Assembly (NCBI GenBank): GCA_964016885.1
Contig: OZ024743.1
Coordinates: forward strand, 202,678,001 to 202,742,000
Direction: 5' to 3'
DNA from: Eledone cirrhosa
Lineage: Eukaryota
Length of the DNA: 64,000 nucleotides
The notes under the pieces were generated by a model, which was not told the origin of the DNA, searched no databases, and saw only the letters and a program-made list of their open reading frames with translations. Below are positions 516 through 64,000 of the stretch, one piece after another. Position numbers and translations under genes: made by a program. How positions within the stretch are numbered: position 1 is the stretch's first letter; every line of letters starts with the position of its first letter.

Positions 516-1582
516 AATAAAGAGATACACAGATATATACATATTTGTGTTCAAATAGTAAGGGACCAAATCATGCGAGGCTGATCAAAAATTCACTCGT
601 TTCCTGTCAGATATGTCATTAAAATAACTAGGTGTGCGATATTGGAATCGCATATGACAATTAGCTAATAATTATGTAGAAAGCAAGGTGAAGCGGTTGA
701 AGAAATATATGGATATTTGTGCAGATGTTTGTTTTGTGTTGTTTGTGAGTTTGTAAAACTGATGTTGAGGATATCTGTGAAGAGTGCCATGTGGGTATAA
801 GAAGGGAGGTACGATAGCTCGAAGATGGAAATCAAAATTTGCATGAGGTATTGAAAAATGAAGGTTTCCTAAAGCATAAATCTGTGATGAGCGATGATAG
901 AAAAAGCTGATATTTTCACAGCAAGATTTGACAGAATTATAAATATTCCTATTATGTTAATAGTTGTTACTAAAGTTTTTGTTTTTATATTAATTCTTAT
1001 TATTGATATTCCTCTAATTTCACTCTTAGCACTCTTCTCGTTGTAGTTCTTTCGCTATCGAGAATTATTTTTTTGTTAGGTCATAATATATTTTTTCCAT
1101 GTTACTTCAGATCATTGCGATTTGGGTTCAATACCGATTAATTCAACGTTGAATTTCATCTTTTTGTAAACAATGTCAATTGGATCCTCACAGTTCTGCC
1201 TACAGGCAACTCGTAATGAGAACCCGCTCCTCAAAAAAGTTGTCGAACTTATCTGAGTGATACGCGATACGATTTCTCAAAAGCGACTCGTTTTCTCTGT
1301 GCTGCACTATTATATATTAATTTCACATTTTCCTACTCCATTTTAAAATTAACTGGAAATTTGCATGTATACATATTCATACATGCATACATATATATAT
1401 ATATATATATATATATATATATATATATATATATATTAAATTGTTAAACAATATTCAATGATTATGTCAAATAATGAGTTTTACAGTAGATTGGAAGCAC
1501 TCAACAGTTAAAAATAATTTTCTAGAGTTATTAATATAAAAATATAAGTATTAATAACATATATGTTCTTTTGATCAATTAC

Positions 1583-1635
1583 ATTTTATTATACATATTT
1601 CGGATGTACAACAGTACGTCCTCATCAGACAAAAT
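1583..1635 (-). ncRNA. Type I hammerhead ribozyme (family A)
   Basis: Reverse complement of the 1752-1804 motif, core intact. Confidence 0.85.
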
Positions 1636-1751
1636 ACAATGATACATGACATACCCTGAGATGTTAAATGGTTAAGATTTAATCAAGGTAGTAGACTACA
1701 TTGATTAAATCTTAACCATTTAACATCTCAGGGTATGTTATGTATCATTAT

Positions 1752-1804
1752 ATTTTGTCTGATGAGGACGTACTGTTGTACATCCGAAATATGTATAATA
1801 AAAT
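1752..1804 (+). ncRNA. Type I hammerhead ribozyme (family A)
   Basis: ATTTTGT-CTGATGA-GGACGTAC tgtt GTACATCC-GAAAT atgt ATA^ATAAAAT: intact core, 7-bp stem I, stem II, minimal stem III. Confidence 0.85.
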
Positions 1805-1910
1805 TTAATTGATCAAAAGAACATCTAGTTTATTAATACTTATATTTATATATATATATATATATATATATATATATATATATATATATATATATATATA
1901 TATATATATA

Positions 1911-60014: not shown

Positions 60015-60364
60015 TTTTCCCACACAATCAAGCTCTATATCCAATAACACCCATCCCTCAGTTATATCTATAGAAATTTATAGATAAATATTTAGTGGTA
60101 AACACCGAGAGTACGATTTCGGTATAGAGCTAGCTCTAAAAGAAATTAGTAAACTATAGCGGAAAAATCGCGTTTCACCGAGCAGATTTTCAGCCCGCAG
60201 CTATACACGGGTTGAAAGTCTGCTCGAGTATGGTTTGCTAATTTTTTGTTGAGTTAACTCTCCCCCCTGGAAGCAGCGATTCGTTGCTTAAACTTTAATC
60301 TGTTATTTTAATATATATATTCGTGTACAGATTTTGTGCATACACGAAAACAAAATCCTATTTA

Positions 60365-61240
60365 TTTCACGAAAGCAGAGACGGCTTATCGTCATTGTTA
60401 CTGTTCGAGGTTAGATGACCACAGTTTTTCAAAGATCTGAGAACCATCAATGTTCCACTTAGCGTTTGACTTGGATGGTACACGATGACAGCCATTGGCA
60501 CCCCACCAGGCAAGAAGCAGCAACTGCTAAAGTCCGTTCTCAGCTGCGAAAACCTTTTGCTATTATGCTGCACAACTGCGATCTCGCCGACTCTCTCGCA
60601 ATGTGGAACAACCACCGCGATGGTCTAGCTGAGGACATCCACCAGCGCACACGCAGACATAATCCGAACGTAACATACGATGTCGTTTTCAATGAAGCGC
60701 TCATTTTTCTTGAAAACAGTGTCCTGGAGATTGGTGGTAGGCCTCTAAGAGACTAAAGCTTACCTGCCCCTAACAGGAGTGTCTAGAGGTCAATGTCTAC
60801 GGAGCTTCTCCGCGAGACGAGCTACGAGATCAGTGATTCTCCCATGGTCTATTGTATGTAGGATGCTCTAAGGTGAGCTCGCCAAACAATCTCTTCATCT
60901 TTGCTCCGGATGGCAGAACAAAATGTATTGTATACTCTGAGGCTCTAACAATGTAATTTAAATAATTTCTGTTACTTGGAATTTGCATTATGGTTGTACA
61001 AATTATTGTTTCTAAAAAATGTGTTCTCTGTTCAGCCTTTATTGTTGTAACTTTCAATTTTCTTTAACGTACTGGCTGCTGAACTGGGGAATCCTAAAAT
61101 CTATTTAAGCCCAACATCACCCCCAACCTCAGTGACTTAAGAGGGCATGCGTTATCTTTGCACTAGAGTGTAGGGGGGATTCCTGAAAAGATAAAATGCT
61201 GGTATACATATCCGACCGCCAGCCGGACGGGCCAATAGTA
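60365..61240 (+). mobile_element. Internally deleted Helitron remnant
   Basis: FKDLRTIN, DDSHW, QLRKPFAIML, LAEDI, FNEALIFLE (RepHel linker); HGLLYVGCSKV...TKCIVYSEAL (PIF1 helicase end); GC-rich 3' hairpin-like sequence before ATAG-TA. Confidence 0.8.
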
Positions 61241-61256
61241 TATATATATATATATA

Positions 61257-64000
61257 GAAGGAAATTGTAGTTTACTTGAAGCATTGCGTAGTGAGGTATA
61301 TACGTTTGGAGTTAGAAGGCCAGAACAATGCAGGTATGGATATAGAATATAAATACACATGCAAAAGATATCGCTGACAATTAGTCTTTTACCTTAAATG
61401 TATTTGAATATGCTTAAGTTTCGAGATAATATCTCTTCTTCAGGGGAAGTAAAGGGGTTAATCCAGTGTTCTAATTTGCTTGCCAAGTCATGCTGACAGG
61501 AAATAGTATAGAAATTCCATTATATTTCTAATGTCAAAGAGCGAAGGGTAGGTGAATAAAGAGTTATCTCCCTTTAAAAAGGTTTGGACATGTATGTCTA
61601 AGTGTGTGTGTGAATGTGAGAGGATATGTTTATATGTAAATTTGGAAACTAGATGCTCTATCATGTTAACACTGGTCTATGTGTGTGTGTGAGATAGAAT
61701 AAGTGAAGGTGTAAGCATGCGTGTGTGTGTGCGTGTGCGTGTGTGTGTGAGAGAGGATACGTGGAGTTGTAAGTGTGGGGCAAGGTGCTCTATCGTGTTA
61801 AAAATTGGGTGTTGAGTTCTAGTCTGTTATTGATTGGTGGTTGCGTTTTGTCTATAATTAGAGCTTCTGTAATTCTAAGATTGCCGAGGTTTCTTTTCTT
61901 AGCTTTTATCCTAACTATTATGTTTTTGTCGGTGTTTTTGCATTTCACTAGGAGTTTCTTAAATGAGGAAGCATTAGTGCTAAGGTGTTCTTTTATTCTA
62001 ATGTGAAGTGGTCTGGTGGTGCTACCTATGTAGAAATTGTTGCATTTGTCGCACTCTAAACTGTATACGACATAAGCCTGGTGTCATAGGTCTGTGTCGT
62101 CGATGGGGCAGTTGGCCAGCGTGCAGGGGCTGTCATGTCTGGTGGAGTGTCTCTTGCTTAGCTGTCCGCGTAGAGAAGATCCTGAGTGGGCTAGCTGGAT
62201 ATCTAGTCCCTCTCGTCTGATAGCTCTGCGGATGGCTGTTGTTGATTCATCACTGAAGTGTGGGAGCTTCAGCAAGCAGGTGTTAGTGCCTCAGGTGTGG
62301 TGTTATCTGTTGTTTCTGGCACGGTTCGCGGTGGACGTCGGGTATCCGTTCAGTTTAAGTACTTCCAGGAAATCTGTGGTGTGTGTGTCTCGGTCTAAGC
62401 GTCGTTGCATTTGTTCCGGATACGTGTTAGTTCGTTCCTTATGTATCCTAACTTAGCGCTGACTGGGAGGGCTGATCTGAAATGTACCAACAGGTCCCTG
62501 CTGGCGGCTTTTTTATAGAAGCAGCTGTGAATGTCGCCTTCCTTTGTTACCCTGAGTTGGAAGTCCAATACGCGGCCATCGGGGTGTTCCATGCTCAACT
62601 TTATACCGGCGTCCATGCTGGAGAATGTCATGTATATTTTATCTACTTCTTCACGGGATGATGTAAGGATGAGTATGTCATCTACATATCGGGTGAAGAA
62701 GGTATAAGAATGGCAGGTGTTGAGGGCTCGGCATTCTAGCTGGTGCATATAAGTGATGGCCAGCACTTATATGAACCAGCTAGAATGCCGAGCCCTCAGC
62801 ACCTGTGATTCCTATATTTTCTTCACCCGATATGTAGATGACATACTCATCCTTACACCATCCCGTGAAGAAGCGGATAAAATATACATGACATTCTCTA
62901 ACATGGACGCCAATATAAATGGTAGCATGGAACACCCCGATGACCGCGTATTCCTATTGGACTTCCAGCTCAGGGTAACAGAGGAAGGTGACATCCGAAC
63001 CTGCTTCTATAAAAAAGCCGCAGGCAGGGACCTGTTGGTACATTTCAGATCAACCCTCTCAGTCAGCGCTAAGTTAGGATACATAAGGAACGAACTAACA
63101 CGTATCCGGAAAAATGCAACGACGCTTAGACCGAGACACACACAGCACAGATTTCCTGGAAGTACTTAAACTGAACAGATACCCGACGTCGAACGCGAAC
63201 CGTGATAGAAACAACAGAGGACACCACGCCCAAGGCATTAACACTTGCTTGCTGAAGCTCCCACACTTCAGTGACGAATCAACAACAGCCATCCGCAGAG
63301 CTATCAGAAGAGAGGGACTAGATATCCTGCTAGCCCACTCAGGACCTTCTCTACGCGGACAGCTAACCAAGAGACACTCCACCAGACATGACAGCCGCTG
63401 CACGCTGGCCAACTACCCCATCGACGACACAGACCTATGACACCAGGCTTACGTCGTATACAGATTAGAGTGCGACAAATGCCGCAATTTCTACATAGGT
63501 ACCACCAGACCACTTCACATTAGAATAAAAGAACACCTCAACACTAACGCTTCCTCATTTAAGAAATACCAAGTGAAATGCAAAAACACCGACAAAAACC
63601 TAATAGTTAGGACAGAAGCTAAGGAAATAAACCTCGGCAATCTTAGAATTACAGAAGCACTAATTATAGACAAAATGCAACCACCAATCAATAACATACT
63701 AGTACTTAACACCCAATTTTTAACATGATAGAGCACCTAGCCCCACACTTACACTTCCACGTATCCTCTCTCTCACACACACACACACACGCATGCTTTC
63801 CCCTTCACTTATTCTCTCTCACATACCCACATACACACACATAGATCAGGTTTAATATGATAGCGCATCTAGCCCCCACATTTACATATAAACATATCCT
63901 CTCACACTCACTCACACACACGCACACACACATGCCCGCGCGCATGCTTACACCTTCACGTATTCTCCCACACACACTTAGACATACATGTCCAAACCCT
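61257..64000. mobile_element. Large head-to-head fold-back PLE (family H); left arm on -, right arm on +, runs off the window
   Basis: Both arms encode FTRYVDDIL, LDFQL, FYKK, LKLPH and VY.LECDKC..FYIG.T.RPLHIRIKEH (GIY-YIG); axis at TGGCCA 62757-62762. Confidence 0.92.
61413..61448 (-). ncRNA. Partial hammerhead (family H)
   Basis: TTCCC-CTGAAGA-A-GAGATA t TATCTC-GAAA-CTTAAG; cleavage triplet and 3' stem I missing. Confidence 0.55.

Follow-up and report, generated by a model that had tools for sequence, protein, structure and literature searches.

Two-armed Penelope-like insertions in (TA)n of Eledone cirrhosa pair a long-ended with a short-ended arm

Endonuclease-bearing (EN+) Penelope-like elements (PLEs) insert as a unit that, in the available text of Craig et al. 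2021 (PMC8557442), includes an adjoining inverted copy, often has a tail at one end only and is biased towards microsatellites. According to the same text, the Naiads, which lack a ribozyme, form the same structures, and the origin of the tandem and inverted structures and of the tail is an open question. In vitro, both target strands are nicked and extended by the Poseidon element of Anolis (PAc); two internal start sites delimit its tail, ribozyme cleavage is not needed and a dimer is predicted, as presented in the main text of Frangieh et al. 2024 (PMC11167929). The Penelope elements of Adineta vaga have head-to-head palindromic junctions, for which the accessible sections of Arkhipova et al. 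2013 (PMC3846280) propose antisense self-priming, and paired hammerheads on opposite strands have also been noted (PMC4209133). Here, we analyze a stretch of 64,000 nucleotides from Eledone cirrhosa (contig OZ024743.1, positions 202,678,001 to 202,742,000, hereafter the window), in which PLEs of six families (A-F) form two-armed insertions, together with samples of these families from the 3.0-Gb genome. The insertions are real, systematic and ordinary for the PLE group, and they do not represent a new kind of system. Their geometry, with an inverted 5' copy, a one-sided tail and microsatellite bias, is already in print (Craig 2021, Arkhipova 2013). The only new element here is the near-absolute rule, as measured, that a long-ended (L) arm is paired with a short-ended (S) arm.

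Masked self-comparison of the window and inspection of the raw sequence showed that all eight listed insertions consist of two arms joined at their 5'-truncated ends with their 3' ends outward, one arm being L and the other S. This is the geometry that the initial annotation had described, with seven insertions representing five families (A-E) and an eighth, here called family F, which we completed from the neighbouring genome stretch and which ends at 64278. Family coordinates are counted from the first base past the inferred hammerhead cleavage site (+1). The insertions and their arms are:

1437-1849: family D insertion
1437-1692, minus strand: family D L arm, element positions -102 to +153; the 3' end adjoins (TA)n at 1391-1436
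1695-1849, plus strand: family D S arm, -102 to about +50, hammerhead core at 1759; then (TA)n
1911-2294: family E insertion
1911-2165, minus strand: family E L arm, of an older family without a canonical hammerhead core
2156-2294, plus strand: family E S arm, 112/133 identical to its partner; then (ATT)n and a repeat resembling a short interspersed element (SINE)
8085-10375 and 40987-41158: family C insertions
8085-8159, minus strand: family C L arm, outer 75 nt of the tail only, zero overlap with the S arm
8160-10375, plus strand: family C S arm, 2.2 kb, with decayed reverse transcriptase (RT) thumb and GIY-YIG-like coding sequence; then (CT)n, then (TA)n
40987-41071, minus strand: family C S arm
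41064-41158, plus strand: family C L arm, tail only, with 8 nt of microhomology overlap with the S arm
21769-22632 and 27500-27692: family B insertions
21769-22368, minus strand: family B L arm; the junction position is approximate, within low-complexity sequence
22369-22632, plus strand: family B S arm, ending 19 nt past the inferred cleavage site, 94% identity to its partner
27500-27564, minus strand: family B S arm, 62/62 identical to its partner, 1-nt loop
27560-27692, plus strand: family B L arm, -43 to about +90
31560-36161: family A insertion
31560-31686, minus strand: family A S arm, inverted, -70 to +53
31684-36161, plus strand: family A L arm, full unit, starting at +11 of the 5' repeat and ending at +145 before (TA)n
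61257-62760, minus strand: family F L arm, 1.5 kb; the centre is a short local palindrome without a spacer
62759-64000, plus strand: family F S arm, continuing to window-equivalent 64278 (278 nt outside the window), which leaves out the last 45 nt of the L tail; then (TA)n

The arms of the window pairs are 84%-100% identical, for example at 145/152 positions in family D and 1333/1444 aligned positions in family F. The description of the pairs as palindromes holds for most of them, but not for 8085-10375 and 40987-41158, where the L arm is tail-only and the arms overlap by just 0-8 nt.

In the genome, exact matches to 23-25-nt motifs were counted in families A (3289), B (31,370), C (25,438), D (2628) and E (221), while reversed controls gave 0. 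The first matches by position, all from contig C1, were sampled (A 74, B 30, C 30, D 80, E 30), with a wider refetch for 20 long copies, and best-hit loci from many contigs were added for families A, C and F; all genome-wide statements rest on these position-ordered and best-hit samples, in which individual loci carry L numbers. Six of the C1 loci (L131, L136, L137, L138, L144 and L153) hold an identical 43-nt family B fragment with identical flanks, carried inside another repeat.

The arm ends are bimodal. With S and L windows set from the data themselves, one or the other window contains the end of 220 of the 227 arms that cover the anchor (A 84/87, B 27/28, C 26/26, D 83/86). Among the 88 position-sampled head-to-head pairs of families A-D, 85 are L+S, two are S+S and one combines S with an intermediate end, as compared to at most 50% L+S under random pairing (binomial P 4e-22). 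An L+L pair in family D (L180/L242) that the script had missed was found by hand and would change the count to 85/89; the script also overlooked about four L+S pairs that are interrupted by inserts. The best-hit samples gave L+S in 14/15 pairs for A, 14/15 for C and 2/3 for F, the third F pair being S+S and only three F pairs lying within the flank. In family E, the script assigned 14 pairs as 8 L+S, 3 S+S, 1 L+L and 2 S+intermediate, and the family was left out of the main count because, by eye, its S+S cases have a tail piece beyond an insert. The systematic asymmetry of the arms and the non-random position of their ends, as proposed initially, are thus borne out.

Another 112 arms of families A-D are unpaired (52 L, 56 S and 4 other); this number is a maximum, since some partners are interrupted by inserts or located outside the fetched flank. 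The S site thus also serves as a 3' end without a partner, and the two-armed form is common, yet not the sole product; many copies are single-armed. Three single arms in the window were absent from the initial list:

36765-37038, plus strand: single family C L arm
48830-49051, minus strand: single family A S arm, -167 to +53, without a partner arm
60268-60310, plus strand: single family C S arm, 43 nt

Adjoining the hotspot 5' end of the family A arm is a perfect 26-bp inverted repeat at 49046-49113, mostly of non-element DNA and centred on (TA)n, a configuration that points to repair in which a self-complementary TA end folded back. An old inverted repeat at 57734-60016, with arms of ~930 nt at 70% identity and hammerhead-like heptamers at 57946 (minus strand) and 59227 (plus strand), is possibly a further decayed two-armed element.

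Compared with the published EN+ PLE unit, the tail is longer here (45-100 nt versus 30-40 bp), and the one-sidedness of the tail, which the available text states qualitatively, is seen here in 85/88 pairs (PMC8557442). The likeness to PAc lies in the AT-rich target, the extension of both strands and the two internal start sites. However, the PAc start sites do not differ between strands, they are adjacent in an AC-rich stem loop described as "not homologous" to the target whereas the ends here lie in TA-like sequence, and the main text offers no model for the inverted arm (PMC11167929). The Adineta vaga elements share the head-to-head inverted pseudo long terminal repeats (pLTRs), the palindromes at junctions, the optional tail on one pLTR and the microhomology at junctions, but differ in their low copy number, their target duplications of 8-10 bp and their explanation by antisense self-priming, as far as the accessible sections go (PMC3846280). 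This geometry is not mentioned in the available text of PMC13282606 and bioRxiv 2026.07.22.740005. None of the papers found in our literature search, which did not reach key subscription reviews, applies the term twin priming to PLEs.

The elements are EN+ PLEs, in agreement with the initial assignment. Evidence from coding domains covers families A, C, D and F. Family F contains remnants of an RT (PF00078, E 4e-4, below the cut-off) followed by a GIY-YIG domain (PF01541, E 2e-5, above the cut-off). By translation, families A, C and D contain YRDD followed by YIG motifs, family C without the RT core; the order in their broken open reading frames (ORFs) is a decayed RT or thumb, a cysteine cluster and a GIY-YIG-like motif. 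The Pfam search gave zero matches for family D, and its endonuclease region has ESM Atlas matches at 0.96-0.97, one cluster being 31% GIY-YIG. The cysteine cluster resembles the Neptune linker in the available text of PMC8557442, which we take as a lead only. A direct terminal repeat, corresponding to a pLTR in partial tandem, was seen for family A alone (31684-31818 = 36027-36161). The L arm of this insertion passes the L site into a decayed RT and C-terminal GIY-YIG ORF, and its 3' hammerhead core is at 35972, with cleavage inferred after 36016. An inverted 5'-truncated copy adjoins the 5' end in 8/8 window cases and in the 88 pairs of the A-D samples.

Families A, B and D alone have the hammerhead core CUGANGA in their consensus, with stems identified by eye; the cores of C (CAGAAGA), E (CUGAUCA) and F (CCGAAGA) are non-canonical. 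The predicted motifs resemble published hammerheads, for which dual motifs 100-700 bp apart on opposite strands had already been noted, in their short palindromic helix III; they differ in that three of the six families have non-canonical cores. An Rfam scan gave zero hammerheads among the 150 rows listed (of 169), which contain just sub-threshold microRNA matches from hairpins and microsatellites. Single-strand folding of the six ribozyme regions gave zero hammerhead folds, a result that is uninformative for dimer-type motifs. Several independent family D copies (L168/L235, L204, L210 and L192) carry a SINE-like repeat in or beside the hammerhead region, and at least six family D hammerhead motifs are arranged in tandem with 92-nt spacing at 157160569-157161051 of contig C1, resembling a retrozyme array.

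The S site is located about +50 from the inferred cleavage site in families A and D, +15 to +25 in B, +21 to +29 in C, about +40 to +55 in E, where the site is uncertain, and about +110 in F. The range of 20-55 nt given initially therefore does not hold for F. The tail from S to L measures about 45 (F), 68 (B), 88 (C), 95 (A) and 100 nt (D and E). Since S ranges from +15 to +110, and since Naiads without hammerheads form the same structures in the available text of PMC8557442, the ribozyme has no visible part in setting the ends, and the proposed tie between arm end and ribozyme is not supported. Ribozyme-cut RNA as the usual template was likewise rejected, as the 5' ends of L arms fall at +1 to +15 in only 2/43 family A pairs and 0/40 family D pairs, in addition to the +11 case of the window, with no enrichment. 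The suggestion that second priming occurs internally by TA microhomology fares no better: none of the 87 family A arms ends at the perfect TATATATA tract (-8 to 0), while 47 end in the S window. Since this tract is never used in family A, TA complementarity by itself does not determine S, whose position is fixed and only fine-tuned by microhomology. The L site recurs in the 5' copy of family A (31684-31826), where the sequence reads on into the ORF. L is thus internal in family A, the one family in which this could be seen, and the proposal that one cDNA is primed at the RNA 3' end does not hold there. No poly(A) was found at any end inspected.

TA repeats flank most of the insertions. The sequence (TA)4 is present within about 20 nt of 231/256 S or L ends, as compared to 1036/8000 random positions (13%). 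In contrast to the TA-rich flank described initially, the right flank is (ATT)n with the SINE-like repeat at 2294 and (CT)n ahead of (TA)n at 10375. An informative paralogous empty site was available for 2/133 pairs, and both of these sites hold a TA run and neither arm. These data support (TA)n as the pre-existing target. A target-site duplication around the units would be hidden by (TA)n. The TA tracts are also reused in a nested manner: several family A insertions (L007, L017, L026 and L030) have family B and C ends directly within their flanking TA.

The arms of a pair share their haplotype. In family A, paired arms differ in 56/1130 diagnostic cells (0.050), as compared to a shuffled mean of 0.316 and a minimum of 0.212 in 2000 shufflings. 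The corresponding values in family D are 10/113 (0.088), 0.457 and 0.227, and in family B, with too few pairs for shuffling, 2/47 cells differ. Rare alleles are mostly restricted to one arm rather than shared (120 vs 9 in A, 91 vs 2 in D), indicating that the arms have aged separately in place. Opposite-strand joints at the family A hotspot are present in the raw Illumina reads of one public run (4 reads, 3 starts) and in the contigs of another, while a third run has 78 reads with an inverted continuation inside the tail, possibly copies of one restriction-site-associated DNA (RAD) fragment. The junction at 31684 in the window is bridged by none of the listed reads or contigs. The paired arms thus represent one event, as the initial annotation had assumed. 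That two arms inserted independently, or that the pairs are an artefact of the assembly, is unlikely.

The 5' ends of the arms cluster at -161 to -172 in family A, which is a 12-nt palindrome, at -92 to -102 in D, at -37 to -45 in B and at about -33 to -46 in C. The family C ends from the best-hit sample were excluded from these counts because the query touched the junction. This hotspot, which is probably the transcript 5' end, is reached by at least one arm in 50/99 pairs and by single arms too. True palindromic overlap characterizes 77/99 pairs, while the arms barely overlap in 22. In 16/99 pairs, the S arm outreaches the L arm on the 5' side by over 300 nt, and the reverse is seen in 6, although the anchor pattern under-detects very short S partners and thus favours the former class. 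In family A, the 5' ends coincide within 25 nt in 18/43 pairs (shuffled 9.3, P 0.0002), also outside the hotspot (13 vs 5.7 expected, P 0.0008), as would be expected from one template. The ends of D coincide in 5/40 pairs, not above chance (shuffled 3.5, P 0.25), and are uncorrelated between arms (Spearman 0.01). The L-arm 5' ends show no pile-up at S, and the 12 ends of family D that lie in the tail are spread from +29 to +117. Of 85 junctions, with edges taken from BLAST without a chance model, 35 overlap by at least 2 nt, 13 overlap by 0-1 nt, 35 have 1-30 extra nucleotides and two have more. The insertions at junctions are short and often locally templated, and the short overlaps and insertions fit end joining, at integration or in later repair.

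We consider it probable that the pairs arise by single insertion events into (TA)n, in which both nicked strands prime one template RNA at the two fixed internal sites S and L. A dimeric enzyme would nick both target strands and start copying with one active site at S and with the other 45-100 nt further 3', at L. The copy primed at L would either stop early or displace the S-primed copy, displacement being needed because most L arms pass S without a pile-up there. Both copies would often reach a common stop, probably the transcript 5' end at the short palindrome, and the two cDNA ends would be joined by microhomology-type end joining. Priming by only one target end would give a single arm, and later deletions would shorten some arms. 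Such twin priming accounts for the L+S pairs, the matched haplotypes, the single S arms, the coincident 5' ends of family A and the pairs in which S outruns L. The initial proposal that both ends of a break in (TA)n prime and that the cDNAs are joined is in this form the likeliest route, which we infer, with fold-back and later deletion as the main rival. A stricter version, put forward tentatively, is that PLE integration is an obligatorily asymmetric twin target-primed reverse transcription (TPRT), in which an enzyme dimer may use a single RNA in two fixed registers that are separated by 45-100 nt and primed from opposite target strands, with the trailing RT displacing the leading cDNA.

Several observations weigh against twin priming. 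The detection bias towards longer S arms, the chance-level coincidence of 5' ends in family D and the small number of informative empty sites have been given above, and strict twin priming of the L1 type predicts the pile-up at S that is missing. In the asymmetric pairs L006, L049 and L109, a centred palindrome has lost part of one arm by an internal deletion, so that asymmetry can be secondary, and a hairpin-removing deletion would also leave tail-only L arms. Short fold-back pieces are found on single arms (L097 and L237); L237 (1299-1560) is a 3-kb family D S arm whose 5'-most 190 nt are duplicated inverted around a TA run, without an L end. In the L+S pair L230 (442-870), the arms differ at 3/4 subfamily-diagnostic sites, possibly reflecting a two-template event. 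Finally, the biochemistry of the anole PLE does not bear out the coupling of L with S, as its start site in vitro did not differ between strands in the main text of PMC11167929.

In the fold-back alternative, only one target end primes, at L; the cDNA folds back with its 3' end at a local palindrome and serves as its own template until copying ends at the AT-rich S site, where it is joined to the other TA end. Later deletions across or within the unstable hairpin produce asymmetric and single arms. It yields L+S pairs with identical haplotypes by construction, and a shared subfamily haplotype is compatible with a single RNA, with fold-back and with two RNAs from one source. The 12-nt palindrome is the commonest centre in family A, the loops at 27562 and 62760 are 0-8 nt, and the deletions and snap-backs just described do exist. 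However, fold-back of an L copy cannot directly make pairs that barely overlap or in which S outruns L. It requires one-sided deletions of 0.3-3.7 kb in the 16/99 pairs of the latter type, affecting the L side more frequently than the opposite side (6), and the loss of a whole L arm for each single S arm, although single S arms are as common as single L arms. It also gives no reason for leaving at a tight S site, bypassing better TA matches, and S is a true start site of the anole PLE in vitro (main text of PMC11167929). We therefore regard fold-back as rather unlikely.

The remaining alternatives have less in their favour. A model with two RNAs of common origin, in which each subunit of an asymmetric dimer uses its own RNA and each RNA is primed by one target end, would suit the uncorrelated 5' ends of family D, the lack of a block at S and the discordant arms of L230; this is improbable, given that arms nearly always share their haplotype despite several subfamilies, that the 5' ends of family A coincide outside the hotspot and that a two-RNA dimer provides no obvious cause for pairing L with S. 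For rotifer Penelope elements, self-priming on an antisense transcript was put forward to explain head-to-head junctions with palindromes (accessible sections of PMC3846280), but it predicts neither two fixed end sites nor non-overlapping arms, and in the main text of PMC11167929 the purified anole enzyme worked with a nicked DNA primer on sense RNA, which makes self-priming very improbable here. Least probable of all, and already largely refuted, is that single arms inserted independently side by side in a TA hotspot or that the pairs are assembly artefacts. TA tracts are indeed reused, with other families in the TA flanks of L007, L026 and L030, and the junction at 31684 is unbridged; yet most junctions have no TA between the arms, the pairs are L+S and haplotype-matched, the rare alleles sit in one arm, and the opposite-strand joints recur in raw reads and in the contigs of another run.

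In L1 twin priming, reportedly described by Ostertag and Kazazian in 2001, both target ends prime a single RNA, and microhomology serves to join the cDNAs; the first primer is said to lie at the poly(A) 3' end, the second site to be variable and the pieces to be non-overlapping. In contrast, both sites are fixed and internal here, and 77/99 pairs overlap as true palindromes. The first primer does not lie at the RNA 3' end, as L is internal in family A and poly(A) is lacking at the inspected ends, and the pieces do not typically stop at the second site, as only 22/99 pairs barely overlap and there is no peak at S.

The L+S rule, the haplotype-matched arms and the S arms that outrun L arms are constraints for any model, which the in vitro system could now test directly. 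Given that each family has between 221 and 31,370 exact motif matches, the process shapes the palindrome and microsatellite landscape of the genome, which matters for repeat annotation. Asymmetric twin TPRT, if true, would bring together the tail, the inverted pLTR and the 5' palindrome as products of a single step, and PLEs would be chiefly responsible for tens of thousands of short palindromes in the genome.

Other repeats were also observed in the window. Inverted duplications of flanking DNA surround TA-rich stretches at 44528-44662/45949-46083, 50691-50870 and 30983-31150/36421-36587, and one such pair brackets the family A element. A minus-strand long interspersed element (LINE) with endonuclease and RT domains is located at 22745-25914, and a LINE 3' part of 1.35 kb with zf-RVT is tandemly duplicated at 2506-6859.

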